A DNA stretch of 64,000 nt from Bacteroidetes bacterium HGW-Bacteroidetes-5 (GCA_002842515.1 PHDC01000002.1:190744-254743), one strand, 5' to 3'; positions 3,029 through 63,205 are shown, numbered from the stretch's first letter. Program-made: numbers and translations. Notes: a model not told the origin generated them from the letters alone.

Positions 3029-3802
3029 AAGGTTACGGGTAAAAAGCCGCGGGCGATAATTCCGGTGCATCTCTATGGGATGCCTGCCAAAATGGATGAG
3101 ATTTTGGAGGTTGCGGGCAGATATGGTATTCCGGTGCTGGAGGATGCTGCAGAGGCTTTGGGTTCGAGGTATAAGGGGCAGTTTTGCGGTACTTTTGGGG
3201 AGTTTGCCTGTTTGTCGTTTAATGGGAATAAGATTATTACGACGTCGGGCGGGGGTGCGTTGGTTTGCAGGAGTGCAGATGAGGCTGGCGTTACTAAGTT
3301 TCTGGCTACTCAGGCTCGTGATAATGCTCCTCACTACCAGCACTCGTCTGTTGGCTATAACTACAGGCTGAGTAATATTTGTGCCGGTATTGGGCGTGGG
3401 CAGATGTTGGTTCTTAACCAACACATCGCCGCCCGCCGGGAGAACAACCAAAAATATATGCAGATGCTAAAAAACGCTCCGGGTATCTCATTCCAAGATA
3501 ACCCAACAACAGATTTCGAATCTAACAAATGGCTCACCTGCATCATAATCGACCCAAAAAAGGCCGGCTACACCCGTGAAGATCTCCGCAAAAAAATGGA
3601 TGAGCACAACATTGAAACCCGCCCCCTCTGGAAACCGATGCACCTCCAACCAATCTTCCACGAATACCCATTCTACGGCAACGGCACCAGCGAAGAACTC
3701 TTCAACCACGGCCTCTGCCTACCCTCCCACCCCACACTCACCCAAAACGACCTTCAACGCGTGGTGGAACTAACCTTGCCAAGCATCGTGGGGCATCGCT
3801 GA
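3029..3802 (+). pseudogene. 5'-truncated DegT/DnrJ/EryC1/StrS sugar aminotransferase fragment; C-terminus supplied by a repeat element
   Basis: KVTGKKPRAIIPVHLYGMPA, EDAAEALGS, SFNGNKIITTSGGG. In-frame stop at 3017-3019, so the N-terminal part is absent. Last residues LTLPSIVGHR are read from the family-A element. Confidence 0.85.
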
Positions 3803-3832
3803 TTATCAGCGATCTATTTTTTGAGCGCGTTA
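3771..3832 (+). repeat. Family-A REP-like element (TAACCTTGCCAAG...GCGCGTTA)
   Basis: Core also at 4177, 6150, 6468, 8185, 18600, 19971, 26863, 40066-40126 and 63169; internal hairpin ATCGCTGAT-T-ATCAGCGAT. Confidence 0.85.
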
Positions 3833-4005
3833 TTTAACATAACTTTTACTTGTAAGAAGAGGAGCGCACACACACCAATGGAGTTTTTGTTAAGATGCAG
3901 TTAGTTAAGTATTTGTAAGAGGTCAGCTTTTTTGTGCCTTTAAGCAATGTGTTGTTTTGTAAATACTTAACAAAAACTCCGTTGGTGTGCAAGCCGGCCA
4001 CATAA

Positions 4006-4040
4006 CCGCGAAGCGTAACACACCCGCGTAGCGGACCATA
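4006..4040 (+). repeat. GNA-triloop mini-hairpin pair
   Basis: CCGC-GAA-GCGT and CCGC-GTA-GCGG, same unit type as 17793, 26897 and 38255. Confidence 0.6.
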
Positions 4041-4164: not shown

Positions 4165-4177
4165 GGTTAGAAATGGA

Positions 4178-4349
4178 ACCTTGGCAAGGGTTGCGGACCC
4201 AATCCCGCAACGCGGTAAACACAACTGTGAAACGGACCATATGATCCCTGGGAGTTTTTTACTCTGTGCTGTTTTTCTTATGTTTAACATTTTTGGAAAA
4301 TCAAAAAAAGTAAACTCACCAAAGCTAAAATGCAAATATTCAAATCAAT
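4178..4349 (+). repeat. 172-bp direct repeat, copy 1
   Basis: Near-identical to 6151-6322; starts with a family-A variant ACCTTGGCAAGGGTTG. Confidence 0.9.
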
Positions 4350-4710: not shown

Positions 4711-5259
4711 ATGGAATTAATCACTATCTTTGCAGACATTTTATACACCGTGAAGTTCAATAAAAATGGAATTCACGAGTTTGCGAAGGTTTTTAACGAG
4801 TGGAGCGATCCTGAGGTGCTTTTTGATTTTTTTGAAGATAATAAGAGTGATCTAAATTCTGGTTTTTTCGGTAAAATAAGTGTAGAAGAAGCAGTTATGA
4901 TCACAATTGAAGAAGCTAAATACTTGGAAGACCTATTGATATTTTGCGGCAAAAATGGAGGCAAGACGGCTTTGGATATCTTTTTTAAACATGACTTGTA
5001 TGACTGGCCACAAATTAAAGAGTTGGTTCCAAAGAAAGGATATGGTAAACGTAAAAAATCTTGGCTTAGACTATATGCAATTGAGCTTTCAGAAGAGTGT
5101 TATGTTATAACTGGTGGAGCAATAAAGTTAACTCGAAAACTCAAGGAAAGACCACATACAAAAAAAGAGCTTAAGAAAATTGAAAAATTTATTGACTTTC
5201 TCAAAGAGAATGGTATTTATAACAATAAAGGCATAATAGAAACAATAGAATTACAATAA
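4711..5259 (+). CDS. Putative RelE/HigB-like toxin of a TAC triad
   Basis: C-terminal half SWLRLYAIEL..YVITGGAIKLT resembles RelE/Gp49-like ribonucleases; first gene before an XRE HTH and a SecB-like gene. Confidence 0.55.
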   Translation: MELITIFADILYTVKFNKNGIHEFAKVFNEWSDPEVLFDFFEDNKSDLNSGFFGKISVEEAVMITIEEAKYLEDLLIFCGKNGGKTALDIFFKHDLYDWPQIKELVPKKGYGKRKKSWLRLYAIELSEECYVITGGAIKLTRKLKERPHTKKELKKIEKFIDFLKENGIYNNKGIIETIELQ

Positions 5260-5260
5260 A

Positions 5261-5695
5261 ATGTTAGATCTTGATAAGCTCAACAAAATTTCTACTCCTG
5301 ATACAATATGGAGTAAAGATTCTGCCTTTAGGCAAGAGAACAGTGAATGGCTTCAAAAATCTGCGAAGATAGCGCTGATTGTCTTACGTGCATTAAAAGA
5401 TCAATCTATCAATCAAAAGGATCTTGCTGTATTAATGGGCGTTAAACCTCAACAAGTCAACAAAATTGTAAAGGGAAAAGAAAACCTTACTCTTGAGACT
5501 ATTTGTAAATTAGAAAAAGCACTTAATGTTAAAATTGTAGAAGTAAACATCCCTTTTACTAGAGAATTTATTGTTGAAGGCTACCAAACAAAAAGGCAGG
5601 AGTTCAAACATACATCCACTATTATTCCGTTCAAATACCCTAGTTACGATTTTGAGCTCACTGAATATGTTAGTGATTATAAAGACGCTGTTTAA
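5261..5695 (+). CDS. XRE-family HTH protein, putative HigA-like antitoxin with C-terminal extension
   Basis: INQKDLAVLMGVKPQQVNKIVKGKENLTLETICKLEKAL; aromatic-rich tail. Confidence 0.75.
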   Translation: MLDLDKLNKISTPDTIWSKDSAFRQENSEWLQKSAKIALIVLRALKDQSINQKDLAVLMGVKPQQVNKIVKGKENLTLETICKLEKALNVKIVEVNIPFTREFIVEGYQTKRQEFKHTSTIIPFKYPSYDFELTEYVSDYKDAV

Positions 5696-5709
5696 TTGGA
5701 CATCAAAAT

Positions 5710-6144
5710 ATGACAAAAAATAAAATTATTGGCTTTAGGTTGGCAAGCATCCGCACCAATGAATTCGCAACAGTTGAAGATGTTAATGCCGGCGAAGATA
5801 AAATTTCAATTAAAACGGGAGTAGGTGTAAGAATGAGTATTGAAAAATGCGTAATTTTTGTAGATACCAAATTCACATTCATTTATGACAATTGTCCGTT
5901 TATCATCCTGAACAGTGAATGTAGTTTTATTGTGGATGACAATCACTTCAAGTCATTCAAAAATGATTCCGATGACTCATATGTAATACCGAAAGACTTT
6001 ATTACACATCTAGCAGTCATAGCTGTTGGGACAGCTCGTGGAATACTCCACAGCAAAACAGAAAACACAGAATACAATAAATACTTACTACCCACAATAA
6101 ACCTCACTAAAATAATTAAAGAGGATTTGGTGGTAAAAAATTAG
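5710..6144 (+). CDS. SecB-like chaperone
   Basis: 144 aa; C-terminal HLAVIAVGTARGILHSKT..YLLPTINLTKII matches the SecB-fold LPxIN signature. Confidence 0.6.
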   Translation: MTKNKIIGFRLASIRTNEFATVEDVNAGEDKISIKTGVGVRMSIEKCVIFVDTKFTFIYDNCPFIILNSECSFIVDDNHFKSFKNDSDDSYVIPKDFITHLAVIAVGTARGILHSKTENTEYNKYLLPTINLTKIIKEDLVVKN

Positions 6145-6150
6145 AGGGAG

Positions 6151-6322
6151 ACCTTGGCAAGGGTTGTGGACCCAATCCCACAACGCGGTAAACACAACCG
6201 TGAAACGGACCATATGATCCCTAGGAGTTTTTTACTCTGTGCTGTTTTTCTTATGTTTAACATTTTTGGAAAATCAAAAAAAGTAAACTCACCAAAGCTA
6301 AAATGCAAATATTCAAATCAAT
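6151..6322 (+). repeat. 172-bp direct repeat, copy 2
   Basis: Near-identical to 4178-4349. Confidence 0.9.
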
Positions 6323-6467: not shown

Positions 6468-6505
6468 GAACCTTGCCAAGCATCGTGGGGCATCGCTGAT
6501 AATCA
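6468..6505 (+). repeat. Family-A element
   Basis: GAACCTTGCCAAGCATCGTGGGGCATCGCTGATAATCA; preceded by GCA-loop hairpins at about 6400-6432. Confidence 0.85.
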
Positions 6506-6625
6506 CTGATTTATTATTTATGCAAAATCTACTTATAAGAATTTTTGCGAATACTCTTAGCTAGCCAATTTTGAAATCAAATTTCCGCCATTTATTAAAG
6601 TAATACTTTGCCATTTCTAAAAGTT

Positions 6626-7095
6626 CCAACAGATGGCAAAAAGTACACTATCAATGCAGGATCCTGATAAATCTTCTGCATTAATGGCTACTGCGGATAC
6701 TAAGCCGTCAATTCTGCTTAAAGGTGACAATCCCAGACTTATTGATGAGTGGCAGATGGCTCCGGTATTATGGGATGCTGTACGATTTGAGGTAGATCGC
6801 CGTCAAGCAGTGGGACAATTTATTTTAACAGGTTCGGCTGTGCCTAAAGACAATGCTACGGCGCATACAGGCACTGGTAGAATTTCTCGTATGCTGATGC
6901 GTCCTATGAGTTTGTATGAATCAAAAGAGTCAAATGGAGAGGTGTCGTTAAAGGCGCTCTTTGACGGGGAGCAAGAGATTTCTGTTCGAATCACTTTGTA
7001 CACGCGATATGCGGATATATCTTCAGGCCAACGATGGTGATGTTTACCACTATCGAGATAAAAATGGCCTCGAGTCTGATATGACTGTTAGCCTT
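6626..7095 (+). pseudogene. Internally deleted AAA+ ATPase (DUF4143-type) remnant
   Basis: LIDEWQ Walker B and FILTGS present; Walker A missing. Jumps at about 6980 to C-terminal FLFESLCTRDMRIY..HYRDKNGLESD in another frame. Confidence 0.75.
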
Positions 7096-8187
7096 ATTGT
7101 CGGAACGCGTGGCGTTGGAAAGACAACAATGATGCTTCAGCATATCAGTATGAATTATGACATTAATTCGCCTTCTGTACTCTATGTCTCTTTGGATAAT
7201 TTATGGTTTTCAAGCCACTCACTGTTGGAGCTTGCAGATGAGTTTCACAAAAACGGCGGAAAAGCTCTTTTTTTGGATGAGGTGCATAAATATCCCGGAT
7301 GGTCAAGGGAGATAAAAAACATCTACGACTCTTATTCGGAGATGAAAGTCGTTTTCACGGGCTCTTCTATGCTGGATATATATAGTTCCGGTGCAGATCT
7401 TAGCCGAAGGGCAATCAAATATACTCTAAACGGTATGTCACTAAGAGAGTATCTTGATTATGAGCATAAAATCAAAATAGCACCGGTAACACTCAGTGAC
7501 TTACTAGCAGATCACATTCCGTTATCAATTGAACTGGCAAAATCTTTCCGGCCGGTTGCTATATTGAAAGAGTATCTTAAATACGGATATTTTCCATACT
7601 ATAAAGAGGACAAAGAGGGTTATTTTAACCGGGTTGCCGAAACCATCAACACAGTGATTGAAGTGGACATACCGGCAAATATAGATATTGAATATCATAC
7701 CATTATCAAAATCAAGAAGCTATTTTCCATCATCGCTGCGAGTGTTCCATTTAAACCAAACATAAGTAAACTGGCAGAACAGACTGGGACAACAAGACCA
7801 AGTCTCCTCCATTATCTTGATGCACTTGAAAAGGCTCAGGCAATACTCTTGCTGGATAAAGAAGCTACGGGTCTTAAAAGATTGGTTAAGCCAGAAAAGA
7901 TATATCTGGGCAATACCAATTATGCTTATGCCTTCTCCGGAGATAATGTTAACATTGGTAATCTGAGAGAGACTTTCATCTATTCAATGTTAAGTGCGAC
8001 AAATAAAGTCGCTTACTCAGATAAAACTGATTTTACAGTCGATGGTAAATATCATTTTGAAATAGGAGGCAAAGAGAAAAACCAAAAACAGATTTCCGGT
8101 CTCAAAGAGGCGTATATTGTTAAAGATAATATAGAGACAGGATATTTAAATCAAATACCTCTCTGGATGTTCGGGCTGCTGTATTAA
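7081..8187 (+). CDS. AAA-family ATP-binding protein, N-terminally truncated and fused to the upstream remnant
   Basis: GTRGVGKT Walker A, LFLDEVHKY Walker B, FTGSS; native N-terminus absent. Confidence 0.7.
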   Translation: MTVSLIVGTRGVGKTTMMLQHISMNYDINSPSVLYVSLDNLWFSSHSLLELADEFHKNGGKALFLDEVHKYPGWSREIKNIYDSYSEMKVVFTGSSMLDIYSSGADLSRRAIKYTLNGMSLREYLDYEHKIKIAPVTLSDLLADHIPLSIELAKSFRPVAILKEYLKYGYFPYYKEDKEGYFNRVAETINTVIEVDIPANIDIEYHTIIKIKKLFSIIAASVPFKPNISKLAEQTGTTRPSLLHYLDALEKAQAILLLDKEATGLKRLVKPEKIYLGNTNYAYAFSGDNVNIGNLRETFIYSMLSATNKVAYSDKTDFTVDGKYHFEIGGKEKNQKQISGLKEAYIVKDNIETGYLNQIPLWMFGLLY

Positions 8188-8230
8188 CCTTGCCAAGCAT
8201 CGTGGGGCTTTATTAATAAACAGCGCGTTA
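8185..8230 (+). repeat. Family-A element filling the whole gap between two convergent stop codons
   Basis: TAACCTTGCCAAGCATCGTGGGGC..CAGCGCGTTA; terminal TAA/TTA are the stops of 7081-8187 and 8228-9502. Confidence 0.85.
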
Positions 8231-9502
8231 GCTTTTTAACAACTTTGTAAGTTCCCACGCTTGAACGTGGCGTATTCCTTGATTAGATGGCATATTTACA
8301 TCGTCAAGTGATACGACAAATTTTTCGTAATTGTCTTGAATAGCCTCCAAAGAGGCGTATTCACGTCGCGCGGTTTGCTCATCTGCAAGAATATAGGCTA
8401 CTTGCAAATATATAACTCTGTCGCCTTTTTTTGCTACAAAATCGACCTCTTTATCCCGCATAGCACCCACATAAACCTCGTATCCGGTTCGGTGAAGCTC
8501 CAAATAGACGATATTCTCTAATTTGTATCCGAGGCCATAACCAAACCCGGGATAGAGATAATTCTTAAACGAAAGGTCGTTGATGTAATATTTGCAGATG
8601 CCGGAGATTGTCTCTTTGCCTCGGATGTCATAACGCTCGACCCGATGAACAAGAAACGCATCCTCTATATATCCGATGTAATTGGCAACTGTGTCGTAGG
8701 TTGTTTTGCGCCCGTTACTTTTGAAATAGTTAGCAATATTGTTTATTGACATTAAAGTTGAGGCATTGTTGACCTGATATATGAATATCTCTTCCAATAA
8801 CTTTGGGTCCTTGATGCTGTGTCGCTGAATTATATCTCTAAGCAGAACTGTATCCTTTATGGCAGATATATAGTTGCGTTTTGTCTCGTCGTTCCCAAGC
8901 TTAAAAAGTTCCGGCAATGCTCCGCTCTCCATATATTCCAGATAACTTTGTTTCCCGGGATCCTTTTTAGTTATGCCTGTATATTCAGAAAAGCTGAACG
9001 GGAGTATCTCAAAATTTACATATCGACCGGAAAGCAGTGTAGCAAGCTCTCCGGATAACATTTTTGAATTGGACCCGCTTATAAATATCTCATAACTATC
9101 TACATAATCTTGTGAATAGGAGTTTACGAATTGTTCCCACTCCCGGATGTTTTGTATTTCATCAATGAACAACCAAATTTTCCCGGTGGGTTTGAGTCTC
9201 TCTTTATATAGTTTCACCAAAGTGTCCAGCTCTTTATAGTCACTTATAAAGTCGAAATCTGTAAACTCTTTATTAATATAGAGGATATTATGCAGATTCA
9301 CTCCCTCTTCAATGAGCCGATGTGCAATTTGACGTAAAATATAACTTTTACCTACACGGCGTTGCCCGACAAGTACTTTAATCAACCTATTGCCGGTCGA
9401 ATCAAATATCTTATCTGTATAATCCTTACGAGGAAACCCAAGTTCAGGAACATTGCCATTCCAGAAATTATACTTTTCTAAAGCTGCGAATTTATCTTCC
9501 AT
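8228..9502 (-). CDS. AAA_14/DUF4143 ATP-binding protein
   Basis: GQRRVGKS, FIDEIQ, ISGSNS, KEVDFVA (PD-(D/E)xK-like C-terminus). Confidence 0.9.
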   Translation of the reverse strand: MEDKFAALEKYNFWNGNVPELGFPRKDYTDKIFDSTGNRLIKVLVGQRRVGKSYILRQIAHRLIEEGVNLHNILYINKEFTDFDFISDYKELDTLVKLYKERLKPTGKIWLFIDEIQNIREWEQFVNSYSQDYVDSYEIFISGSNSKMLSGELATLLSGRYVNFEILPFSFSEYTGITKKDPGKQSYLEYMESGALPELFKLGNDETKRNYISAIKDTVLLRDIIQRHSIKDPKLLEEIFIYQVNNASTLMSINNIANYFKSNGRKTTYDTVANYIGYIEDAFLVHRVERYDIRGKETISGICKYYINDLSFKNYLYPGFGYGLGYKLENIVYLELHRTGYEVYVGAMRDKEVDFVAKKGDRVIYLQVAYILADEQTARREYASLEAIQDNYEKFVVSLDDVNMPSNQGIRHVQAWELTKLLKS

Positions 9503-9690: not shown

Positions 9691-10564
9691 GAATGCTGTC
9701 ACCCAGGCAACTCCGGTCAGTGGCGTCGCCTACACCCTTGCCGGCCTCACAGGAACAACAAAAGAGGCGGTAGTAACTCTTACATCTGCGGCCACACTTA
9801 CCGCCACCAACGCCGACACTAAGGTATATATGGTTATCAACCCGGGTACACCCACCGGTAGCTGCCTTGTAGGGGTATCAACAGATGGCACCACCTGGAA
9901 ATATCTCGAAAAAGCAGTCCCTGTGGGCGGCTTTAAGCGGGGTGTCAAATATGTGGTTACAATAGACGCTGCTACGGCAACTCTTGAGAATGTAGTAGTC
10001 GGGGGTGCCGGTAAGATATGGATGGACAGAAACTTAGGAGCCACGCGGGTTGCTACAAGCAGCACCGATGCAGAAGCTTACGGAGATCTATACCAATGGG
10101 GAAGACTCTCCGATGGGCATCAGATAAGAACATCCGGAACCACAACAACATTAGCAGACTCCGATACTCCGGGACATAATAATTTTATAAGATCCTCTTC
10201 TCTACCTATCGATTGGCGCGACCCGCAAAACGACAACTTATGGCAAGGTGTGAGCGGTACCAACAACCCGTGCCCAAGCGGTTTTAGAGTTCCTACAGAA
10301 ACTGAACTAAATGATGAGCGACTAAAGTGAAGCACCAATAATCCAGCAGGGGCTTTTGACTCGCCACTTAAACTCCCCGTAGCAGGCATGCGCAACTACT
10401 CCTCTGGTTCGCTCGACTATGTTAGTTACTAAGGCATGTACTGGAGTAGTACCGTAAGCGGCTCCAACTCACGCTACCTGTTCTTCCAGAATAACTACTT
10501 CAATGCCGAAATGCAATTTCACCTCCGTGCGAATGGCTTTTCTGTTCGCTGCGTTAAGGATTAA
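9689..10564 (+). pseudogene. 5'-truncated fimbrillin-type gene with C-terminal FISUMP (Fib_succ_major)-like domain and two in-frame stops
   Basis: WMDRNLGA, GDLYQWGR, NPCPSGFRVPT; reading continues past TGA 10328-10330 and a later TAA to YWSS..GFSVRCVKD*. Confidence 0.8.
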
Positions 10565-10690
10565 CTTTGCCAGTGTTTGATGAAACTATCTGACATACAA
10601 ATATCTACAAAACCCAGTTTTCCAATATTGGAAAACTGGGTTTTGTAACCACAAGAACAACAAACACATACATCAAACACTGGCAAAGTT
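10563..10690. mobile_element. Family-B1 MITE-like element, 128 bp, 20-bp perfect TIR and central perfect palindrome
   Basis: AACTTTGCCAGTGTTTGATG...CATCAAACACTGGCAAAGTT; palindrome 10607-10646; second 128-bp copy at 38621-38748. Mobility is inferred. Confidence 0.65.
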
Positions 10691-17932: not shown

Positions 17933-18226
17933 ATGAGGATAATAACTTTCCGGAGGATTATGGAGTTTTCTTTAGTTTATGCAGATGCCGATATTGCTCT
18001 GCGTGAATGGTATAAAAAAACACAAAAGGCCAATTGGAGTTGCTATGCAGATATTAAAAAGAGTTTTAACAGTGCAGATGCCGTTGGAAATAGTCGTTTT
18101 GTGTTTAATATCAAGGGCAATAGTTATCGTCTTATAGCGATTGTTTTATTTAAAATGAAAACGGTCTATATCAGGTCTATCTGCACACATAGTGATTACG
18201 ATAAGATTGATGCAGCAAATATTTAA
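17933..18226 (+). CDS. higB: HigB-family toxin
   Basis: LREWYK..ANW..DIKKSFNSAD..RFVFNIKGNSYRLIA..YIRSICTHSDYDK. Confidence 0.9.
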   Translation: MRIITFRRIMEFSLVYADADIALREWYKKTQKANWSCYADIKKSFNSADAVGNSRFVFNIKGNSYRLIAIVLFKMKTVYIRSICTHSDYDKIDAANI

Positions 18227-18236
18227 TTTTTTAGAG

Positions 18237-18602
18237 ATGGCAACAATCAAAAACATAGAGCAATACGAGAAAACCTGTGAGCGGGTTGAGGAGCTTTTAG
18301 CGGTGGTAGACAATGAAACACCGGAAAGTGACAAGAATTATATTGAGCTGGAGCTTTTATCGGGTCTGGTTTCGGAGTATGAAGATGTTTATCTAACCGT
18401 CACATCGCCAACTCTTCCGGAGGTGCTTCGTTTGAGGATGGCAGAAATGGGCTTGAATCAGAGGGGTTTAGCAGGGTTACTTAATGTGAGTCCATCCAGA
18501 GTGAGCGAATATCTCAATGGCACTTGTGAACCAACACTAAAGGTGGCTCGGGAAATGGGTAAAAAGCTCGCAATTGACCCACATATTCTTCTGGGGATAT
18601 AA
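18237..18602 (+). CDS. higA: HigA-family antitoxin (XRE HTH)
   Basis: LELLSGLVSEYE..LRLRMAEMGLNQRGLAGLLNVSPSRVSEYLNG. Confidence 0.9.
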   Translation: MATIKNIEQYEKTCERVEELLAVVDNETPESDKNYIELELLSGLVSEYEDVYLTVTSPTLPEVLRLRMAEMGLNQRGLAGLLNVSPSRVSEYLNGTCEPTLKVAREMGKKLAIDPHILLGI

Positions 18603-18620
18603 CCTTGCCAAGGGTCTATT
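18600..18620 (+). repeat. Truncated family-A element on the higA stop
   Basis: TAACCTTGCCAAGGGTC. Confidence 0.75.
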
Positions 18621-18702
18621 GATTTTCGAAAATTATTATTATCTTTAAGTTAACTTTTCCGAAATATCAATCTGCCCTCTTAATCTACAGATATTCAAGA
18701 TT

Positions 18703-20001
18703 ATGAAAAGTGACGGCGCTTCTGAGCGAAAAGAGCCTAAAGAAGATTTAAGACACGAGGCCTGTCTTAGAGATTTATTGATTGAGATTACTGCAGATTT
18801 TATAAATATCCCTCTTGAACAGGTTGATAAGAAAGTCAATTTGGCTCTTAAAAAAATGGCGCAGTTTGTCAATGCAGATCGTTCATACACCTTCGATTAC
18901 GATTGGGAGAATGATGTTTGCAACAATACTTATGAGTGGTGCGCACAAGGGATTACTCCCGAAATTGGTAATCTGCAAAATCTTCCTCTCTATGTGCTCA
19001 AGGAGTGGGTGGTAGCCCATAAAAAGGGGGAATCTATGTATATTCACAATGTTCTTGATTTGCCGGATGGGATTGGAAAAGATGTTCTTGTATCACAGGG
19101 CATTAAAAGTTTTATTACAGTTCCGATGCTCGCAGGAGAGAGGTGTATAGGTTTTGTTGGATTTGATTCTGTGAGAGATTATAGATATTACTCAGATAAC
19201 GACCAGCAGATTCTTAAGATTTTTGGTCAAGTGCTGGCAAATGTAAAGATTCGAAAAGAGATGATCGATAATCTTGTGGTGGCAATAAAAAAGGCAGAAG
19301 AGAGCAACAGACTTAAGACTGCATTTATTCAAAATATTTCACACGAAATTCGAACGCCATTGAATGGAATTCTTGGTTTCAGCCAATTGATTGTAGATGA
19401 AACCATTCCTCAAAGCGAAAGAAAGCAATATTTCAAATTAATGCAGCAAAACAGCGATCGTCTCTTGCAAACGATCAACAACATAATGGACATTTCCGAG
19501 ATAACTGCAGGGTCAATTATACCTGTGAAAGAGAGTGTACATATTGGAATGGTATTGAATGATCTCTCCGAAAATCTTATTTCTAACTGTTTAACCGGCA
19601 ATGTTAAGATAATAACAAAGATTCCTGTCGGCTACGAGGAGCTTCGCATATTGACAGATCAAAAGCTCTTTACCAAAATCTTTACACAACTACTGAGCAA
19701 TGCACAAAAGTTTACCGAAGAGGGCTCCATCACTTTTGGTTTTGAAGTATCCGATGAATTGGTAACGTTTTTTGTAAAAGATACCGGAAAAGGGATATCT
19801 GCAGATAAACTTGATTTCATCTTCAAGCCTTTTATTCAAGAAGATACCTCAATAACTCGTGCACACGAAGGGAACGGGCTTGGGCTGCCAATCGCAAAGG
19901 GGCTGGTCGAACTTCTTGGTGGCAAACTTTGGGTTGAGTCCGAGCCAAAAAAGGGGACAAATTTTTATATGACCTTGCCAAGGGTCGTGGGGCTTAGTTG
20001 A
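18703..20001 (+). CDS. GAF-domain sensor histidine kinase
   Basis: GAF region; NISHEIRTPLNGI (H-box), VKDTGKGI, GNGLGLPI; tail TLPRVVGLS read from a family-A element. Confidence 0.9.
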   Translation: MKSDGASERKEPKEDLRHEACLRDLLIEITADFINIPLEQVDKKVNLALKKMAQFVNADRSYTFDYDWENDVCNNTYEWCAQGITPEIGNLQNLPLYVLKEWVVAHKKGESMYIHNVLDLPDGIGKDVLVSQGIKSFITVPMLAGERCIGFVGFDSVRDYRYYSDNDQQILKIFGQVLANVKIRKEMIDNLVVAIKKAEESNRLKTAFIQNISHEIRTPLNGILGFSQLIVDETIPQSERKQYFKLMQQNSDRLLQTINNIMDISEITAGSIIPVKESVHIGMVLNDLSENLISNCLTGNVKIITKIPVGYEELRILTDQKLFTKIFTQLLSNAQKFTEEGSITFGFEVSDELVTFFVKDTGKGISADKLDFIFKPFIQEDTSITRAHEGNGLGLPIAKGLVELLGGKLWVESEPKKGTNFYMTLPRVVGLS

Positions 20002-20015
20002 TAGCCAGCGTGTTA
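19971..20015 (+). repeat. Family-A element overlapping the kinase 3' end
   Basis: GACCTTGCCAAGGGTCGTGGGGC..CAGCGTGTTA. Confidence 0.85.
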
Positions 20016-20162
20016 TTAATTATGTCAACTTTCAAGAAAAAAATTCTCGAAGCTACAGGTGCCTATTTACAAGAAATATAAAGTTGAACGGGCATCATCT
20101 ACACTTATAGCCACAAATTTTATAATCGATCTCCTTTTGCCAGTACTCAAATCTCAAGGATA

Positions 20163-25433: not shown

Positions 25434-26172
25434 AAAGCACTACATATCCATTGCTTCTGTAGTTGTGATGCTCGCCATTTGGCAGAGCGCAGCCTTCTAC
25501 TTTGGCTCGGCGCTCATAGTCCCTCAGCCCAAAGATACTTTTCTGACTGTTTTTAAGCTAATTGGAGATTTAGATTTTATTCAGGTTGTGGGGGCAACAG
25601 TGCTGCGCGGGCTCTTTGGGTTTTTCATATCTGCAGTGCTGGGCCTGTTTGTAGGAGTTCTCTCCGGGTTACGACCAAATTTCAACACCTTTATCTCCCC
25701 ATTCTTGGTCACCATCCGCTCCGTTCCCGTAATCTCCCTCATCTTGTTGGCACTTATCTGGTTCAACCCCAATGTGGTACCAATCTTTATCGCAATGCTC
25801 ACAATGTTCCCTTTTATCTGCACCAATGTTGCAGATGGAATAAAGAGTGTAGATCCCAACCTTATCCAAATGGCTAATTTTTACCGGGTTGATAAAAGGA
25901 AGATTTTGCGTTGTGTATATATTCCTGCCATTATGCCCTTTATTATCAGCGGCGCTTCAAGTGCAATGGGCATCGGCTGGAGAGCAATAATTATCGGCGA
26001 GGTGCTGAGCCAGCCAAAATATGGCATCGGCACGAAGATGCAGTCAGCTCAAACCTACCTCAATGTGGAGGCCGTAATCGCCTGGACCCTTATCGCCATA
26101 ATTATCAGCTTTGCTTTTGAAAAAATTATCCGACTCTACGAAAAACGAGTTTTAAAATGGAGGGCTCAATAA
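25414..26172 (+). CDS. NitT/TauT-family ABC permease
   Basis: Hydrophobic helices; IGWRAIIIGEVL. Confidence 0.85.
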   Translation: MKISLTKKHYISIASVVVMLAIWQSAAFYFGSALIVPQPKDTFLTVFKLIGDLDFIQVVGATVLRGLFGFFISAVLGLFVGVLSGLRPNFNTFISPFLVTIRSVPVISLILLALIWFNPNVVPIFIAMLTMFPFICTNVADGIKSVDPNLIQMANFYRVDKRKILRCVYIPAIMPFIISGASSAMGIGWRAIIIGEVLSQPKYGIGTKMQSAQTYLNVEAVIAWTLIAIIISFAFEKIIRLYEKRVLKWRAQ

Positions 26173-26894
26173 TGACAAAATCAAAAGCAGGGAACTTGCA
26201 GATGGATAGCTCGCAGATGGAGAGTTCTAAGATAGATCGCTCGCATATGGGTTTGCAGATAAAAGATCTCAATAAGAGTTTTAACGGGATCACCCTCTTC
26301 AAGGATTTCAATCTCAGTTTGGCAGAGAGCACCATCACCTGCATTCTGGGCCCTTCGGGTTGCGGGAAGAGCACACTGCTCAACATTATCGGCAAAGTAA
26401 TTTTGCCCGACAGCGGCTCCCTCATTGGTTTCGATGATAAGATCTTCTCATATATTTTTCAGGAGCCGCGGCTGCTGCCCTGGAAAACGGTTCGAGGTAA
26501 TATCGAATTTGTGCTTGGCGGGAATATGTCGCCCTCTCAAAGAAGGAGTGAGGCAGATAGGCTCATTCATAAAGTTCAGTTAGAAGGTTTTGCCAACTAC
26601 TACCCCTCACAGTTGAGCGGCGGTATGCGCCAGCGTGTCTCAATTGCGCGCGCCTTCGCCTGCCACTCCGATATCATCCTGATGGACGAGCCGCTCAACG
26701 GACTGGATGCCTCCCTAAAACAGAATATGATAGAGTGGTTTTCCCAAATCTGGAAAGAGGACAGGCGCACCGTAATCTTCGTAACCCACAATGTAGACGA
26801 AGCCCAGCTACTCGGCGACGAAATCATCGTCCTAAGCAACCCACCCGTGCAAGTTGTGAAGAGAACCTTGCCAAGCATCGTGGGGCTTTCTTAA
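26172..26894 (+). CDS. NitT/TauT-family ABC ATP-binding protein
   Basis: GPSGCGKS, LSGGMRQR, LMDEP; TAATG coupling; tail TLPSIVGLS read from a family-A element. Confidence 0.9.
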   Translation: MTKSKAGNLQMDSSQMESSKIDRSHMGLQIKDLNKSFNGITLFKDFNLSLAESTITCILGPSGCGKSTLLNIIGKVILPDSGSLIGFDDKIFSYIFQEPRLLPWKTVRGNIEFVLGGNMSPSQRRSEADRLIHKVQLEGFANYYPSQLSGGMRQRVSIARAFACHSDIILMDEPLNGLDASLKQNMIEWFSQIWKEDRRTVIFVTHNVDEAQLLGDEIIVLSNPPVQVVKRTLPSIVGLS

Positions 26895-27460
26895 AACTGC
26901 GCAGCAGTAAACACAACCGCGCAGCGGACCGCAAATCCGTCTGTTATAGTTCCCCACATAACTTTTTATCCTCGGAGAATTTTCATCTGCCAGTGTTTTG
27001 TGTAAGTTGCTGTAGATTAATAGATTAATTTTTGTGTTTTTCTCAATTGCCAAAATCCCAATTTTTAAACACCTGAATACTAGCTTGTTTCACATAACAC
27101 TGCCAGTTGAATTTTCTACTATGCGGTTATGTGGTCCGTTTCACGGCTTGTGTTGTCCACTTCGTGGTTGTGTGGTCCGTTTCACGGATGTGTTGTCCAC
27201 TTCGTGGTTATGTGGTCCGTTTCACGGATGTGTTTTCCACTTCGTGGTTATGTAAAAAAAGCGCAGCCGTAAAACAGCTGCGCAAAATATCTCAGGGCTC
27301 TTGTGCCAAGACGCACATAATCAATTACTTAACCAAATTTTAATTTGCGTGTAAAACACTTAAACACAATGTTTTGGCACAAGAGCCCTGAGATGGATAC
27401 GGGCAAAGAACCCAGAGATGCGGGCAAAGAGCCCTGAGATGAAAACCTGAGATGAAAACC
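26863..27460. repeat. Composite repeat cluster: family A + GCA hairpins + B2 + GAA hairpin array + family C + short tandem units
   Basis: A 26863; GCA 26897-26934; B2 26987-27106; array 27124-27253; C 27289-27394; GGGCAAAGA(A/G)CCC(A/T)GAGAT units to about 27460. Confidence 0.85.
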
Positions 27461-40022: not shown

Positions 40023-40065
40023 TCGAAGCTTATGTAGATGCTTTGCGCAGTTACACGGAATAGTC

Positions 40066-40126
40066 TGCCAAGGGTTGTGGGACTTTGCTGATAATCAGCA
40101 AAGTCCCACAACCCTTGGCAAGGTTA
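40066..40126. repeat. Full palindromic family-A element (27-bp perfect arms, 1-nt centre) between convergent genes
   Basis: TGCCAAGGGTTGTGGGACTTTGCTGAT-A-ATCAGCAAAGTCCCACAACCCTTGGCA; overlaps the stop at 40124. Confidence 0.9.
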
Positions 40127-42286
40127 CAGGGCAAAACGCCAGATTAGTTTTGCAAGGATGGTTGTGCGTGTGAGTTTTAGGGTGTTGTTTGCTGTGTCAA
40201 TATTTTGATTCACGACAAAGTAGAAGAAACTGCCTATTTTTGGAATCCAGTTTATCCGATAGTTTAGAATTACCTCATCGTCTTCATTGTTCCACTGAGC
40301 AAAGAGCGATGAGTTTAGTTTTGGGTTCAATGCGTAATTTACTCTTCCTCCAAATTCATTTACCTTGAAATCTCCCTGCGGCAAATCCAGAGTGTTGTGA
40401 CTCCAGTCTAAACCTAAGCTTAGGTGTCTGTTCAGGCTCAGGTTAAGGTACATCTCAATGTTAGATCTTTTTCCGGTATAGAAGCTTCCTGCTTCAAATT
40501 CTACCCCTGCATTGAGGTTTCTGCCGTCAAACGAGTGAAACTCTGCACTGAAATTGTTGTCGTTGTATTGGCCTTTTGGAATAACTACGCCATCTATAAG
40601 AGGGAAATCTTCGTGAGGGTTATCCTGAGTAAACTCATAATTAAGTCCAAAATAGTCTCCGCTGCTGAAATTGATCCCGAATGGTCTTACATCCAGTGAG
40701 AAAGTCTCGGCAAGACCTGTTTTATCATTAATAAAATACTCAAGATCATATAATTGAAATGAAAATGAGCGTATATAGCTTGGCATCTTCTTAAACCTTG
40801 GTTCAAATTCAAGCTCTGAGTAGATTCGCTTAAAATTGGAACGGTTAACAAACCCCAGAGTCGGATTAAAATTCTCTTGAATGGAATTAATTCCGGCATT
40901 AAAACTCCAGATATCGTTGGGGTAAAACAGGAAAAAATGATAAGTTGCGTTATCCTTGTTCTTTGCAGATTCCTGCCCCGGATTATCTAAAGTGATTGCT
41001 CCGGAAAAGCCGGCCATTAAGTTTTTGTCCCCCAGAAACTTTGATGTTTTGTATGTGAAGTCTGTTCCATATGTGGCGCTGTATTTGCCGTTACTGAATT
41101 TTTGAGTCGATATAAATCCAATCCCGGACTCTTCGAATATGTCCTGTTTAATCCTGATAATGGATGAGTTAGAACTACTTATACCCTTAAGAGCAGCCGT
41201 CTGTAGATTCATTATCCCAATACTGGTCTTTCCAATCTTGCCAAAAAGCCTCCCTCCCCCAATTATCGGAATTACAGACTCCTCCTCGATACCGATTCTT
41301 CGGCTATAAAAAAGCCGTGCAGATGAAACACTCATATCAAAGTAGCTGCTCCCCTCCAGAAAGAACTGTCTCTTCTCCGGGTAGTAGATAGAGAACCTGG
41401 AGAGGTTAACCTCTCTGCGGTCAGATTCAACCTGAGCAAAGTCGGTGTTGAGGGTAAAGTTGAGCTTCATCGTGGGGCTGATATCGTAGTTGACCTCCCC
41501 TCCTATTTTGAAGGCAGAATTTGTAAATCCATATTGTCTCTCTATTCCGGTGGTTATGTATGGGGTGATCTCAACTCTATCCTTCTGCTTAATATCTCTA
41601 ATACCCTCCAGTTTGCCACTTTGAGAAATATTGTCAATGCTGTAACTGCGAGACCATCCCTGCCAGCGAACCTGCTCATTCTTTCTGCGAATATTTCTCT
41701 CAAAGTTAACCGACCACTTTTGAATGCTATCCCTCTTAAACTTTAGGGTAGAGAATGGAATTGCAAACTCTGCATACCAACCATTTTGGTCACGAGTAAC
41801 CCTAACATCCCACACTCCGTTCCAGTCTTTATTGAATCTGCCGCCATCTCCTCCAAGCCACACATCTGCCATCGCCCCGTTTGGATTAGTTATAAAGAGA
41901 TATCCGTTTCGATTATCGTTAAAGGGGGATATCATAATCTCGATATCGTCGTCGCCCGACCAGTTAAAATCTCTGGACATCTCCTTTGCAGATATCCTGC
42001 CTGGCTCAGAGTCAAAACACCACACTCCAAAATAGATGTTGTGTGTATCATAAAGGACAGCCACTTTTGTCTGCTCTGTAGGTTGCCCCCCCTCCGATGG
42101 CTCACGTTGAGTAAAATTGGTTATTGGAAAAGCACTTTGCCACACTCTCTTTTTCAAATCTCCGTCTATGTGAATTGGTTCAGCCACTCTTGCGGCCTTA
42201 AGTGTATCGGGAATTGAAGTTTGAGATTTTAATGAATTAAAATAAAACAGCACAAATGCAAATATTACAAGATTTCGAATAACCAT
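40124..42286 (-). CDS. Outer-membrane protein with CBM9-like N-terminus and DUF5916-like barrel
   Basis: IHIDGDL..W..FTQREP..TKVAVLYD; NTDFAQVESD, PEKRQFFLEG; C-terminal aromatic. Confidence 0.8.
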   Translation of the reverse strand: MVIRNLVIFAFVLFYFNSLKSQTSIPDTLKAARVAEPIHIDGDLKKRVWQSAFPITNFTQREPSEGGQPTEQTKVAVLYDTHNIYFGVWCFDSEPGRISAKEMSRDFNWSGDDDIEIMISPFNDNRNGYLFITNPNGAMADVWLGGDGGRFNKDWNGVWDVRVTRDQNGWYAEFAIPFSTLKFKRDSIQKWSVNFERNIRRKNEQVRWQGWSRSYSIDNISQSGKLEGIRDIKQKDRVEITPYITTGIERQYGFTNSAFKIGGEVNYDISPTMKLNFTLNTDFAQVESDRREVNLSRFSIYYPEKRQFFLEGSSYFDMSVSSARLFYSRRIGIEEESVIPIIGGGRLFGKIGKTSIGIMNLQTAALKGISSSNSSIIRIKQDIFEESGIGFISTQKFSNGKYSATYGTDFTYKTSKFLGDKNLMAGFSGAITLDNPGQESAKNKDNATYHFFLFYPNDIWSFNAGINSIQENFNPTLGFVNRSNFKRIYSELEFEPRFKKMPSYIRSFSFQLYDLEYFINDKTGLAETFSLDVRPFGINFSSGDYFGLNYEFTQDNPHEDFPLIDGVVIPKGQYNDNNFSAEFHSFDGRNLNAGVEFEAGSFYTGKRSNIEMYLNLSLNRHLSLGLDWSHNTLDLPQGDFKVNEFGGRVNYALNPKLNSSLFAQWNNEDDEVILNYRINWIPKIGSFFYFVVNQNIDTANNTLKLTRTTILAKLIWRFAL

Positions 42287-60385: not shown

Positions 60386-60396
60386 CCAACACAAGA

Positions 60397-63171
60397 ATGA
60401 AAATGATAAAGAAAATATTAGTTCCGGCGCTTATCTCTTGTTGCGTTATTGTATTTAGTACCATAAGCTCAAACGCCCAAAGCACAAAAGTAAAAAGTAC
60501 AAGTACCACCCAAGCAAATAGCACGGTCAAAAAAGCAGACAGTACCGCTAAGCTTACCCCTTACCAGAAGCTTTTCAACAAGAAGAAGAGTGTGAAAACA
60601 TCTACAGGTATAATTACGCTTCATATTGTAGATGGTAAATTATATTTTGAACTTCCTGTTAAGTTAGTAGATAAGAGCTTTTTAATGAGCTCTCTGGTAG
60701 ATAATGTGAGTAATATGAGTCTAAGCTATGCGGGGCAAAGGGCAGCAAGATCTCAGCACATCTGTTTTACAAAGACAGATTCGCTGGTGCAGATACGCCT
60801 GGTACCGATTACTAAGATTGTAGATTCTCAGGATAGCGGAATTCAGGAGGCTGTGAACAGAAGTTCGTTGCCTTCTGTATTGGTATCCAAACCGATACTG
60901 GCCTTTAACGCAGATAGCAGTGCAGTCGTTTTTGACGCAACATCGTTTTTTGTCTCAGACAGCAAGTACATCGGCACCTTGAATGCCTCCTCATTTGGTG
61001 GATTTATCCAAAAGGTATCTACATTCAGTAAAGAGCTGAGCGCGCTAAAAGATGTGGAGTCCTATGAAAACAATGTTGCTGTGATAAGCGATATGACATA
61101 TACCTTCAAAACCTTCTTCCTGGGAATGGAGTCGGGTGGAGCAGAGTATGCCACAGTTGAGCTTAGAACCACTCTTACCCTTTTACCCCAGGAGAGATTC
61201 CGTCACCGTTACGGTGACTACAGGATTGGTACTTCAGTAACTGAGTTTGAGAAGTTCGACAGCAAAATTCAGGGTTCAGAGTTAAATTACCTTGCCAACA
61301 GATGGAGGCTTGAGCCTAAGGATGCAAACATATTTCAACTTGGAGGGCTGACAGAGCCGAAAAAACAGATTGTGTTTTATATAGATACTCTGTTTGTTCC
61401 TGAGTGGAGAGAGGCCATAAAGAGGGGATTGCTTAAATGGAATGATGCTTTTGAAAAAATTGGTTTTAAAGATGTTATCCTGGTATACGACTTTCCGTCA
61501 AAATCACAGGACCCTAAGTTCAGTGCGGGAAATATCGCTTACAATTGTGTGCGCTATGCGCAGACACCATCACGGAACATTGCAAGACAAATTAACATTG
61601 ACCCAAGAAGTGGTGAGATTTTAAGTGCTTCAATTCTCTTCTTTCGTGACTCTCCGGTAACCCTGCAAAGGGAGCGTATCTATCAGACCGCTGCTGTTGA
61701 GCCGGGTGTTAGGGGATATGAGCTTCCTCAAGATCTTATGTGCTCTTCCATAGAGATGGCAATGATGAGGGAGATGGGCTTTTGTCTGGGTTTGACTGCA
61801 AATCTGGCCGGATCTTCCTGGATGGATGTAGACTCTTTGAGATCTGCAACATTTACACAAAGGGAGGGGATTACCTCCTCTGTAATGGATCAAATCAGGT
61901 ATAACTATATTGCCCAACCGGGTGATATTGAGAAGGGTGTCAAGTTGGCTGCAGATAATTTGGGTGTTTACGACTACTATGCAATCAAGTGGCTCTATAA
62001 ACCTATATTTAAAGCCAAGACGCCTGCTGCCGAGGTTGCGGTTCTAAAGGAGATGATATCCGAAAAGATTAATGACCCTCGTTACTTCTATGGAAAAGAG
62101 CAAAGCTGGAGTGCATATTTTGACCCTCGCTCGGTTATTGAAGATTTGGGTAACGATAAGATTAAGGCTGCCAAATATGGGATCAACACTCTTAAATATG
62201 TGGCTGAGAATGCCGCAAAGTGGGTAAATAAAGATGAGGCAGATGAGTCCTACAGAGAGCTCTTCATAGACTTTATCTTCCTTAAACTTTACGACTACTA
62301 CAGGAGTGTAATGGTTAACATCGGTGGTATTGAGATAAACCGGAAATATGAGGGTGACCCTATGCCCTCCTATAAGGTGCTGGACCGCAAGATTCAAAAG
62401 GAGAGTCTTCTTTATATGCTTAACCAGAGTGAAGATCTTGCCTGGGTAGACAATAAAGATCTGCTTTTAATGAGTGGAATGAATCCAAACTTCTCCAGCT
62501 ATCTGGCAAACAACCTTGTCAAACTCGCTTTCCAGCGTGTGGCGATGGTTGCATTTGCGCAAAATGTGAATGCCGGGCAAAATGCTCCCGGGCAAAATGC
62601 TACAGGTCAGAATCCTGCCGGGCAAAATACTATAGGCCAAAATCCTGCCGGGCCGTATACATTAGATGAGATGTTTACAGACCTCACAGCGTTCTCTCTT
62701 AAAAATATGAACAAAGGGTTGGACCCTACTGAGGCGCAAATAGCAACTCTCTTTAACACTGCTCAATTTCTTCTCGCAAATTCGAACCTGCCTATCGTAA
62801 TAAAAGCCAAAGAGAAGAACAAGGCAGCCTTCCAGTTTGTAGAGGATAATAACTTTATCTCCTACAATAACTTAAGAGCAAAATGCTTTCCTGACGAAAA
62901 TATCTGGGAACCGGGTAATGAAAACACCTGGGAACCGGTTAACGGAACAGATAATTTTGATTTGGCAAACATAGGTTCCACAGGAGCAGGTTTTGAGCAA
63001 CTCGTCTCCCTTAAATTCCTTATAAACCGGGACTACTCCGATGTTTACTACAAACATCTATTAGAGTTGAGAGCTAAACTTAAAATCTGCCTTAAAAAAG
63101 CAAAATCCCAAAGCTCAAAAGATAGAATCGGTTACCTGATGCTCTCCATAGACAAAGGGATAGGGGAATAA
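60397..63171 (+). CDS. Metalloprotease paralogue lacking all three zinc-ligand histidines
   Basis: Same fold markers (IDPRSGEIL, SVMDQ, EDLGND) but motif reads REMGFCLGLTA at 61768-61800. Confidence 0.85.
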   Translation: MKMIKKILVPALISCCVIVFSTISSNAQSTKVKSTSTTQANSTVKKADSTAKLTPYQKLFNKKKSVKTSTGIITLHIVDGKLYFELPVKLVDKSFLMSSLVDNVSNMSLSYAGQRAARSQHICFTKTDSLVQIRLVPITKIVDSQDSGIQEAVNRSSLPSVLVSKPILAFNADSSAVVFDATSFFVSDSKYIGTLNASSFGGFIQKVSTFSKELSALKDVESYENNVAVISDMTYTFKTFFLGMESGGAEYATVELRTTLTLLPQERFRHRYGDYRIGTSVTEFEKFDSKIQGSELNYLANRWRLEPKDANIFQLGGLTEPKKQIVFYIDTLFVPEWREAIKRGLLKWNDAFEKIGFKDVILVYDFPSKSQDPKFSAGNIAYNCVRYAQTPSRNIARQINIDPRSGEILSASILFFRDSPVTLQRERIYQTAAVEPGVRGYELPQDLMCSSIEMAMMREMGFCLGLTANLAGSSWMDVDSLRSATFTQREGITSSVMDQIRYNYIAQPGDIEKGVKLAADNLGVYDYYAIKWLYKPIFKAKTPAAEVAVLKEMISEKINDPRYFYGKEQSWSAYFDPRSVIEDLGNDKIKAAKYGINTLKYVAENAAKWVNKDEADESYRELFIDFIFLKLYDYYRSVMVNIGGIEINRKYEGDPMPSYKVLDRKIQKESLLYMLNQSEDLAWVDNKDLLLMSGMNPNFSSYLANNLVKLAFQRVAMVAFAQNVNAGQNAPGQNATGQNPAGQNTIGQNPAGPYTLDEMFTDLTAFSLKNMNKGLDPTEAQIATLFNTAQFLLANSNLPIVIKAKEKNKAAFQFVEDNNFISYNNLRAKCFPDENIWEPGNENTWEPVNGTDNFDLANIGSTGAGFEQLVSLKFLINRDYSDVYYKHLLELRAKLKICLKKAKSQSSKDRIGYLMLSIDKGIGE

Positions 63172-63205
63172 CCTTGCCAAGGGTCGTGGGGCATTGTTGA
63201 TAATC
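63169..63205 (+). repeat. Family-A element on the stop codon
   Basis: TAACCTTGCCAAGGGTCGTGGGGCATTGTTGATAATC. Confidence 0.85.

Follow-up and report, generated by a model that had tools for sequence, protein, structure and literature searches.

A 64,000-nucleotide (nt) stretch of the genome of Bacteroidetes bacterium HGW-Bacteroidetes-5 (hereafter the window; GCA_002842515.1, PHDC01000002.1:190744-254743) contained copies of a dispersed repeat family, here called family A, which is probably the non-autonomous companion of one vertically inherited HUH/Y1 transposase (C2:136730-137611). The enzyme is of the type of the repetitive extragenic palindromic (REP)-associated tyrosine transposases (RAYTs) or of the RAYT-like proteins whose genes are flanked by terminal inverted repeats (TIRs), known as TIRYTs. 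The 2.8-Mb assembly under study is designated G000, with contigs C1, C2 and C4; the window lies on C2 (507 kb), and G000 coordinates without a contig name are those of the window. Our reading draws on the anatomy of the repeat and the motifs of the enzyme, on inverted copies flanking the enzyme gene in six genomes, on the co-distribution of repeat and enzyme and the monophyly of the latter, and on gains and losses between close relatives, among them one lineage in which the enzyme was lost alongside element deletions. Truncation of host C-termini by the element bears on how copies came to lie at gene ends. A sequence-only reading of the window had listed ten places for a REP-like element, and every one of them held a copy (Table 1).

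Within the window, the 11-mer ACCTTGCCAAG was matched 13 times at no more than one mismatch, against 1.37 matches expected, and none of 100 shuffles reached 13; a match at 61289 was rejected as a chance occurrence within a gene. The family extended beyond the window: an nhmmer profile made from unambiguous copies gave ~55 matches across the assembly at E<1e-3 (by contig, C2 31, C1 26 and C4 1). The unit is ~48-50 nt long, with the consensus (T/G)AACCTTGCCAAG(CA/GG)TCGTGGGGC, after which come a weak hairpin and a TTTAG tail. It comprises a 5' tag made up of its first bases, (T/G)AAC, a strongly conserved, non-palindromic 20-nt core, CTTGCCAAG(CA/GG)TCGTGGGGC, a short and poorly kept hairpin with the consensus TTGCTGATAATCAGCAA, and a tail of TTTAG or TTTAA. 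When copies were aligned in fixed register, information was near its maximum from -2 to +21, (T/G)AA-CCTTGCCAAG-(CA/GG)T-CGTGGGGC, and moderate over the next 25 nt, TTTGYTGATWATCAG..A.TTAG. The tag was TAAC in 35 copies, GAAC in 13 and another NAAC in 6; the GTAG (GT[AG]G) tetranucleotide, a hallmark of REPs, was absent from family-A tags in G000. Units stood alone, in tandem at spacings of 44-62 nt or, in one case (40066-40126), as a perfect inverted doublet, described earlier as a full palindrome with 27-bp arms. The second unit of tandems carried a purine-rich leader, AAACGGRGAGAA, and in the tandem C2:144776/144820 the TAA that closed the first unit was also the start of the second.

A search of the genus with Pfam Y1_Tnp returned three weak matches in G000. 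The candidate transposase gene, on the minus strand of C2, lies 54 kb upstream of the window on the same contig, in keeping with the earlier statement that the window itself holds no cognate enzyme. It is single-copy and encodes a protein of 294 amino acids (aa) with the HUH motif DNHVHLQV (NHVH) and the tyrosine motif YILKNPVKA (class-2 Y...NP). This protein scored 29.3 bits against Y1_Tnp (cut-off 23) and 34.2 bits (E 2e-8) against NCBIfam NF047646 (REP_Tyr_transpos; cut-off 80), and is a relative of that equivalog, not a member. Its homologues are named 'REP element-mobilizing transposase RayT' in source databases, and two distant ones carry Bac_DnaA_C (PF08299). The C-terminal 150 aa of the G000 protein had no Pfam match, helix-turn-helix (HTH) domains included, and a PDB sequence search with the enzyme gave nothing useful.

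The enzyme gene of G000 sits between inverted family-A copies at C2:136644(+) and 139988(-), and no other repeat was enriched around it. The same layout was seen in G005 and G044, with one copy 33 nt past the enzyme stop in all three genomes and the other beyond rplU-rpmA. Copies at 383(+) and 1640(-) in G003 bracket the enzyme gene (416..1510) within 35-130 nt, two (+) copies on one side and three (-) on the other surround that of G066 (1162..2067), and G010 has an inverted pair ~100 nt upstream of its enzyme gene. Inverted copies were therefore present on one or both sides of the gene in 6/6 enzyme-bearing genomes, and the Y1 transposase was the only gene bracketed by inverted family-A copies. 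All enzyme loci were near rplU-rpmA, yet gene order around them varied while the repeat stayed adjacent, and the link is therefore not merely frozen synteny. The expected connection to a RAYT-like HUH enzyme was thus borne out.

Family A was found in 7 of the 52 genus genomes (G000, G044, G005, G009, G010, G003 and G066), and the core, specified at 19 bases, occurred only in this clade among one genome for each of 185,579 species, so that the earlier description of a lineage-specific REP-like family stands. Enzyme orthologues (>=60% identity), one per genome, were present in G005 (96%), G044 (95%), G010 (65%), G003 (63%) and G066 (60%); counted with G000, 6/7 repeat-bearing genomes and 0/45 repeat-free ones encoded the enzyme. 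These six enzymes formed one clade in the tree (support 97/99). The six sister genomes held 9-117 copies, with ~117 in G003 and ~87 in G066, each of which had its own core variant. A 57.5-kb contig filed under candidate division TM6 bacterium GW2011_GWF2_37_49 (LBTE01000004.1) was 97-99% identical to G000 C1:1786359-1796841 and carried the same family-A copies, one of them differing in its tag only (TAA versus GAA at C1:1791848); it is a Bacteroidales contig mis-binned into a TM6 genome.

Most copies in G005 and G044 were orthologous to copies in G000, and the family is therefore old. Lineage-specific variants of individual copies, such as GGGTAG at C2:83416, recurred in the orthologues, which shows that copies are inherited, not re-seeded. 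The repeat-bearing genome without an enzyme, G009, is the closest relative of G000 (~95% identical; flanks 92-99%). There, G000 C2:136645-137722, comprising an element and the entire enzyme gene, was replaced by 340 nt of other repeats, with the breakpoint exactly at the first base of the element. Elements in G009 were also lost or internally deleted at five sites (C1:1394624, C2:274885, C2:276527 and C1:1679018/1679159); since the elements at these sites are kept in both G000 and the outgroup G044, these changes are losses. At the junctions of three deletion alleles TAAC, TAACC or TAACCTTG is retained, which hints at cutting next to the tag. Enzyme loss and repeat decay in G009 were observed in one fragmented metagenome-assembled genome; decay of this kind after enzyme loss is predicted by the literature on RAYTs and REPINs, the doublet form of REPs (PMC3116915; bioRxiv 10.1101/2021.07.10.451892). 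The empty alleles sought in related strains thus exist, all of those in G009 being losses by parsimony with G044, and no pre-insertion site with clean boundaries was found. The comparison of G000 C1:517782 with G005 was rejected as an empty site because both outer ends of a doublet are kept, which makes it a deletion remnant. A recent gain is the CAA-tag copy at G000 C2:151296-151346, which lies in frame within a long open reading frame (ORF), is translated as QPWQGSWGNAGNQQ and is absent from G009 and G044.

To relate copies to genes, three frames were traced upstream and downstream of every copy. About half of all copies overlapped a gene end: in 18 the tag TAA closed, in frame, an ORF of 97-931 codons, and in 11 others a long ORF entered the element by 25-54 nt and stopped inside. 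Entry was in frame 2 (ACC-TTG-CCA, translated TLP(S/R)(I/V)VGLS, with a stop at +29 or +35) in 5-6 copies, in frame 1 (AAC-CTT-GCC, translated NLAK..., with a stop at +25 to +49) in three, and in frame 0, through GAA-type copies, in two. A further ~24 of 55 copies were intergenic and off gene ends, and two lay within long open frames. The element carries stops in all three frames (TAA at its start, TGA at +29, TAG/TAA at +25 or +46-52), and in 4-6 copies the conserved TTA of the tail, read on the opposite strand, gave a convergent gene its TAA stop. Directly after many copies came a terminator hairpin and T-run, placing the element between stop codon and terminator (for example at C1:1633184, 1375804, 1679159 and C2:98737). 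The genes that end at copies are functionally unrelated and include those for SodA, Pgk, an NqrF-like protein, a histidine kinase, an ABC ATPase and proteins of SusC neighbourhoods. Frame 0 was used more often (18 copies) than frame 1 (3) or frame 2 (5-6), and the tag TAA served as a stop in 18 of 35 TAA-type copies (51%) against 22% under a null of random TAA in the first 60 nt of the gene tail. This enrichment is real, not extreme; genome-wide enrichment at stop codons accordingly held in G000, whereas coupling was weak in the sister lineages with 87-117 copies (G003 and G066).

The last 60 residues of 25 proteins were compared with their orthologues in four complete, element-free genus genomes. 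The last residue was identical to that of all orthologues in the NqrF-like protein (C2:118309, ...FDDFGG) and in the protein at C2:230869, and Pgk was one residue longer in G000. By contrast with the (Y/F)E-xIVK ending of 4/4 orthologues, SodA ended in ...SARFE, four residues shorter; the C1:765254 protein lacked SFL and was at least three residues short, and the C2:499788 protein was one residue short. Between one and four native C-terminal residues were thus cut off in at least three of seven testable genes. Where ORFs entered in frame 1 or 2, 9-16 element-encoded residues stood in place of 1-7 native ones, and at the GAA-type copy C1:1394624 the native TGA was gone and 11 residues had been gained. 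Since a coding region cannot already contain an in-frame TAA, the element brings its own; the tag TAA was also retained in copies where it is not a stop. Judged from these termini, the insertion point lies 0 to ~5 codons before the native stop, the element probably supplying a stop rather than seeking one, and the shortened C-termini argue against insertion after the stop codon as a general rule. The stop-codon-coupled targeting proposed earlier was not supported in the form given. Selection for harmless insertions offers the simplest reason for stop coupling, and post-insertion selection explains the frame-0 enrichment as well as targeting does. A conserved C-terminal peptide encoded by the element was considered and rejected, as TAA precedes the core in most copies and all three frames are used.

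By analogy with IS200/IS605 elements and with TnpA-REP of E. coli, the enzyme would bind the core on single-stranded DNA and would cut and join beside the tag. Such cutting and joining could multiply, delete and invert units, yielding the singles, spaced tandems and inverted doublets described above. With a TAA at its start and stops in the other frames, a unit could insert over the final few codons of a gene, or take their place, at very little cost, and the surviving copies would be those between coding end and terminator; in frame 0 the element's own TAA would become the stop codon of the gene. Both the assignment of the cutting to this enzyme and the position of the cuts are inferences, as is the view that gene-end placement results from selection and not from targeting. 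Donation of stop codons is already known from GTAG REPs, of which the termini give stops to flanking ORFs and some copies are intragenic (PMC3733652), and family A is a further case. In both, a terminal tag holds the stop that ends the neighbouring ORF (TAG there, TAA here) and some copies are contained entirely in ORFs and translated with them; family A differs in its stops in all three frames, in a right end that can donate TAA to a convergent gene and in the large share of copies that overlap a gene end.

RAYT genes are known to be flanked by their own repeat family (PMC2817692, PMC6006769), and REP/REPIN-RAYT systems (Nunvar 2010, PMC2817692; Bertels and Rainey 2011, PMC3116915; TnpA-REP structure, PMC3479197) resemble the present one in several ways. 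They too have a short, dispersed, extragenic repeat that reaches tens to hundreds of copies, whether solitary, in tandem or as inverted doublets, and a cognate Y1/HUH transposase gene that is present once, with inverted copies at its flanks; the enzyme is passed on vertically, each enzyme is co-distributed with its own repeat family, and the repeat decays when the enzyme is lost. Unlike them, family A has the tag (T/G)AAC instead of GTAG and, in G000, a non-palindromic core with most singles lacking a stable hairpin; its enzyme, at 294 aa, has a long C-terminal extension and falls far below the NCBIfam RayT cut-off (34 vs 80 bits), and its host belongs to the Bacteroidales rather than the Proteobacteria. 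TIRtron/TIRYT genes, whose TIRs can form repeat families (Di Nocera 2013, PMC3733652), likewise encode long RAYT-like proteins with NHVH and Y...NP motifs and a C-terminal extension. They are flanked by TIRs other than classical REPs, which in some species form moderately abundant families of singles, dimers and clusters, and in G000 family A is closer to TIRYT 'solo TIRs' than to classical palindromic REPs. Many TIRYT TIRs read GGGGWSAS, whereas the family-A core has GGGGC(T/A)T, reading GGGGCTTT or GGGGCATC, and GTGGACC in G003, and Pfam detected no HTH in the enzyme. TIRYTs correspond to TnpA-Y1 subclass 2.1 (PMC6006769) and to Bertels RAYT group 1; the subclass is defined by NHVH, a long protein and a C-terminal HTH, with no REP-like sequences identified next to its genes (Quentin 2018, PMC6006769), in contrast to the 55-117 copies here, and our enzyme would be assigned to it by motifs and length only. 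Y1 subclasses 2.4 and 2.6 are rich in Bacteroidetes (PMC6006769). With IS200/IS605 elements (IS608, ISDra2) and their miniature derivatives, family A shares an HUH/Y1 enzyme and a conserved tetranucleotide abutting the 5' side of the element. In IS608 the tetranucleotide (TTAC) serves as both target and cleavage site; the TAAC or TAACC kept at G009 junctions is a comparable feature. It differs in lacking paired subterminal hairpins, in showing no detectable replication-strand bias, and in an enzyme that is single-copy, syntenic and not IS-like.

Several observations weigh against a transposase-driven, REP-type origin of family A. One of the two flanking copies in G000 is 2.3 kb from the enzyme gene, and the classical REP hallmarks are missing or weak there, with no GTAG tag and little folding of most single copies. 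The z-scores of single copies ran from -2.3 to +1.5, 5/6 in the window fold no better than shuffles, and for the named hairpin 65.8% of cells are paired against 62.8% in shuffles, with weak covariation. The consensus does carry an 8-bp inverted repeat, the inverted doublet 40066-40126 has a DNA fold of -34.2 kcal/mol (z -14), and the G066 variant core, AACCTTGCCAAGGTT, forms a 6-bp hairpin by itself; RNAalifold on the consensus gave no convincing structure, and an Rfam scan of the window gave no match. A replication-strand bias of the IS200/IS605 kind was not detectable in G000: cumulative GC skew of C1 turned at ~0.14 and 1.62 Mb, with plus-strand copies prevailing on both sides (8:3 and 9:4). 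If the seven genomes belong to a single subclade, common descent could account for part of the co-distribution. Finally, G000/G005 orthologous copies were 94% identical in the 24-nt tag and core and 82% in the hairpin part, with flanks at 84% in the 150 nt upstream (mostly coding) and 72% in the 100 nt downstream, and a core so far above its intergenic neighbourhood would not be expected of a purely selfish element. Ascertainment bias in this comparison is small, because a recognisable core was kept at 13-14 of 15 G044 sites with spanning flanks. The core is under constraint, whether through host function, enzyme-driven maintenance or both, and the pattern suggests either a benefit of retained copies to the host or their homogenisation by the enzyme.

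Because the core is constrained, a role at the level of RNA or host is kept as a live rival that does not exclude a transposase. Family A would then be a host-selected module of the 3' untranslated region acting in RNA, with the transposase mattering for historical spread only: a stabiliser of mRNA 3' ends, a site where RNA is processed or a protein binds, or a brake on ribosomes at termination, with an RNA-binding factor reading the core as the ribosome reaches the stop codon. E. coli REPs no more than ~15 nt from a stop codon reportedly stall ribosomes and lower expression (Liang, Rudd and Deutscher 2015). The many copies exactly between stop and terminator would be transcribed with the gene, gene-end copies are all co-oriented with it (by construction), and the core identity and its retention in G044 given above fit this account. 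We regard it as possible but the less probable explanation, since no Rfam family matches, hairpin covariation is almost nil and most copies do not fold, 24/55 copies are off gene ends and two are inside long open frames, the family in G066 and G003 occurs mostly as tandem or inverted intergenic arrays with little stop coupling, and the genes concerned have no common function.

Two other kinds of mobile element were weighed against the transposase companion. TAAC...GTTA could be read as the inverse core and core sites of attC-like cassette recombination sites served by an integron-type tyrosine recombinase. As in many attC sites, the TAAC start overlaps a stop codon, three window copies end in GTTA, and each small ORF of a cluster at C2:98.7-101.1 kb closes in a family-A copy. 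No integron integrase was found, however; the best TIGR02249 score, 88.5 bits against a cut-off of 265, is at the level of generic Xer-type matches in all 14 control genomes. Single copies lack R''-L''/L'-R' palindromes, copies on either strand share the orientation of their gene and are spread across two large contigs, and most come after conserved housekeeping genes with syntenic neighbours in related species, which leaves this reading close to refuted. Scarcely more probable is a miniature inverted-repeat transposable element of a DDE transposon (e.g. IS5/Harbinger-like), with the left TAA and right TTA(G/A) as target-site duplication. Many copies do have 5' TAA and 3' TTTAA/TTTAG, and the shared TAA of the C2:144776/144820 tandem would fit, but single copies have no terminal inverted repeats and in most copies the right TTAG/TTAA does not match the left TAA. 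The G009 empty allele CGA-CATTAA-AGGCC, against CGA-GGGGAACC...CTATTT-AGGCC, shows no simple duplication, and the sole gene bracketed by inverted copies encodes a Y1 transposase.

The first 13-16 nt of family A (TAACCTTGCCAAGG(TT); TAACCTTGCCAAGGTT in the G066 variant) were identical to the anticodon arm of tRNA-Gly(GCC), which in G000 (C1:1381736-1381809) matched the consensus of each of the four lineages better than any other of the 36 tRNAs. In six genomes this tRNA lies within ~1.5 kb of a paralogous RAYT gene, and in G000 it is ~220 nt beyond the 3' end of that gene on the opposite strand. The match could mean that the repeat originated from a tRNA fragment, or it could be mimicry. The tRNA-Gly-linked RAYT paralogue was rejected as parent of the family-A enzyme, as the two fall in separate clades of the tree, where the sister group is unresolved. 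A more speculative idea, which we hold to be rather unlikely, is that family A is a tRNA-born REP-type repeat domesticated as a gene-end module; it is raised because of the stops in all frames and the opposite-strand TAA, the 94% conservation of the core and the loss alongside the transposase.

Other repeats accompany the RAYT paralogues of G000. A third repeat family, AACTTTGCCAGTGTTTGATG palindromes, was seen at window 10560-10690 and 38616-38753 and at C1:1380517-1380642; it adjoins family-A cores at four sites and lies ~100 nt upstream of the second RAYT paralogue (C1:1380731-1381501). Near the third paralogue (C1:1991768) is a TTCATCTCAGAGCT repeat, and each RAYT paralogue may have its own repeat family. 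Arrays of 20-nt mini-hairpins (GCGAAGC/GCGCAGC/GTGAAAC-type) occur at window 26895-26980, 27108-27267, 38253-38391 and 38532-38611 and at C1:840620, C1:1833170 and C2:109260, often beginning directly 3' of a family-A core in mosaics like those of bacterial interspersed mosaic elements. Such arrays, together with 145-bp direct repeats (26979-27123 and 38391-38535), edge both sides of an 11.5-kb segment (26895-38355) that holds a SusC/SusD-like pair and is absent from G009, which joins 26895 directly to 38355.

Direct reading and a repeat finder gave eight canonical or truncated copies and two variant ones in the window, accounting for all ten places (Table 1). Four had been said to provide the stop of a gene with their TAA, and do so; three more window ORFs stop at +29 in the ACC-TTG-CCA frame (3065..3802, 18703..20001 and 26157..26894). 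The described ending GCG(C/T)GTTA was present in the 3771, 8185 and 19970 copies, and both ends of 8185-8230 are indeed stops of convergent genes. The doublet is kept in G005 and G009, in G005 with a paired change in both arms (GCTGAT/ATCAGC to GCAGAT/ATCTGC). The variant subfamily has the consensus ACCTTGGCAAGGGTTG(C/T)GGAC and is the dominant type in G003 and G010; the copies at 4176 and 6149 are the sole two of this type in G000, and each opens one of two 172-bp direct repeats (4178-4349 and 6151-6322) that flank a three-gene cluster (4711-6144). Over ~400 nt, window 3468-3873, which includes the end of the DegT-like gene and the 3771 element, was 95.6% identical to MEOF01000023.1 (Bacteroidetes bacterium GWF2_33_38). 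The match suggests recent transfer of that piece; the 2.9-kb stretch fetched from that contig has 36% G+C against ~41% here.

Table 1. Family-A copies in the window and the ORFs that end in them
Copy	Position	Strand	Features	ORF ending in the copy
Canonical, TAA tag	3771..3819	+	Core, good 8-bp hairpin ATCGCTGAT/ATCAGCGAT; fold -8.7 kcal/mol, z -2.3	3065..3802 (DegT-like C-terminus), enters in frame 2, TGA 3800-3802, gains TLPSIVGHR
Variant subfamily	4176..4211	+	GAACCTTGGCAAGGGTTGCGGAC and hairpin GTTGCGG..CCGCAAC	
Variant subfamily, second copy	6149..6184	+	Start of 172-bp direct repeat 6151-6322	
Canonical, GAA type	6468..6517	+	Leader GGGAGAGAACC; intergenic	No long ORF ends inside
Canonical, between convergent genes	8185..8232	+		6961..8187, stop TAA 8185-8187; minus-strand 8228..9502, TAA stop as TTA 8228-8230
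Truncated	18600..18625	+	TAACCTTGCCAAGGGTC, then unrelated sequence; nhmmer E 0.021	18192..18602, stopped by TAA
Canonical, TGA tag	19970..20017	+		18703..20001 (histidine-kinase-like), enters in frame 2, element-encoded end TLPRVVGLS, stop TGA 19999-20001
Truncated, GAA type	26863..26895	+	Only first 33 nt kept, then mini-hairpin array (20-nt units)	26157..26894, enters in frame 2 (TLPSIVGLS), stop TAA 26892-26894
Inverted doublet, REPIN-like	40064..40126	-	Two facing cores, one common hairpin, perfect 27-nt arms	Minus-strand 40124..42286, stopped by TAA (complement of 40124-40126)
Canonical	63169..63216	+	Orthologous copy in G005	60397..63171 (924 aa), stopped by TAA

REP/RAYT systems have been well studied in Proteobacteria and hardly at all in Bacteroidota, and repeat families have rarely been found for long, HTH-bearing RAYT-like proteins (TIRYT, subclass 2.1). 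The genomes compared here form a series from uncultured groundwater Bacteroidales, with six enzyme-bearing genomes (9-117 copies), one recent loser of the enzyme that is shedding copies, and 45 with neither. In annotation, ORFs that enter the element will be given 9-16 spurious residues by gene callers (such as TLPSIVGLS or NLAKHRGA), true C-termini may be misjudged, and the repeats break short-read assemblies. If the domestication idea is true, the enzyme-repeat pair would be a maintained gene-capping system, giving genes a stop and a 3' tag recognised by protein or RNA, and not mere junk. Should the conservation of the core reflect a host function, it would be direct evidence that RAYT-repeat systems are kept for their usefulness.

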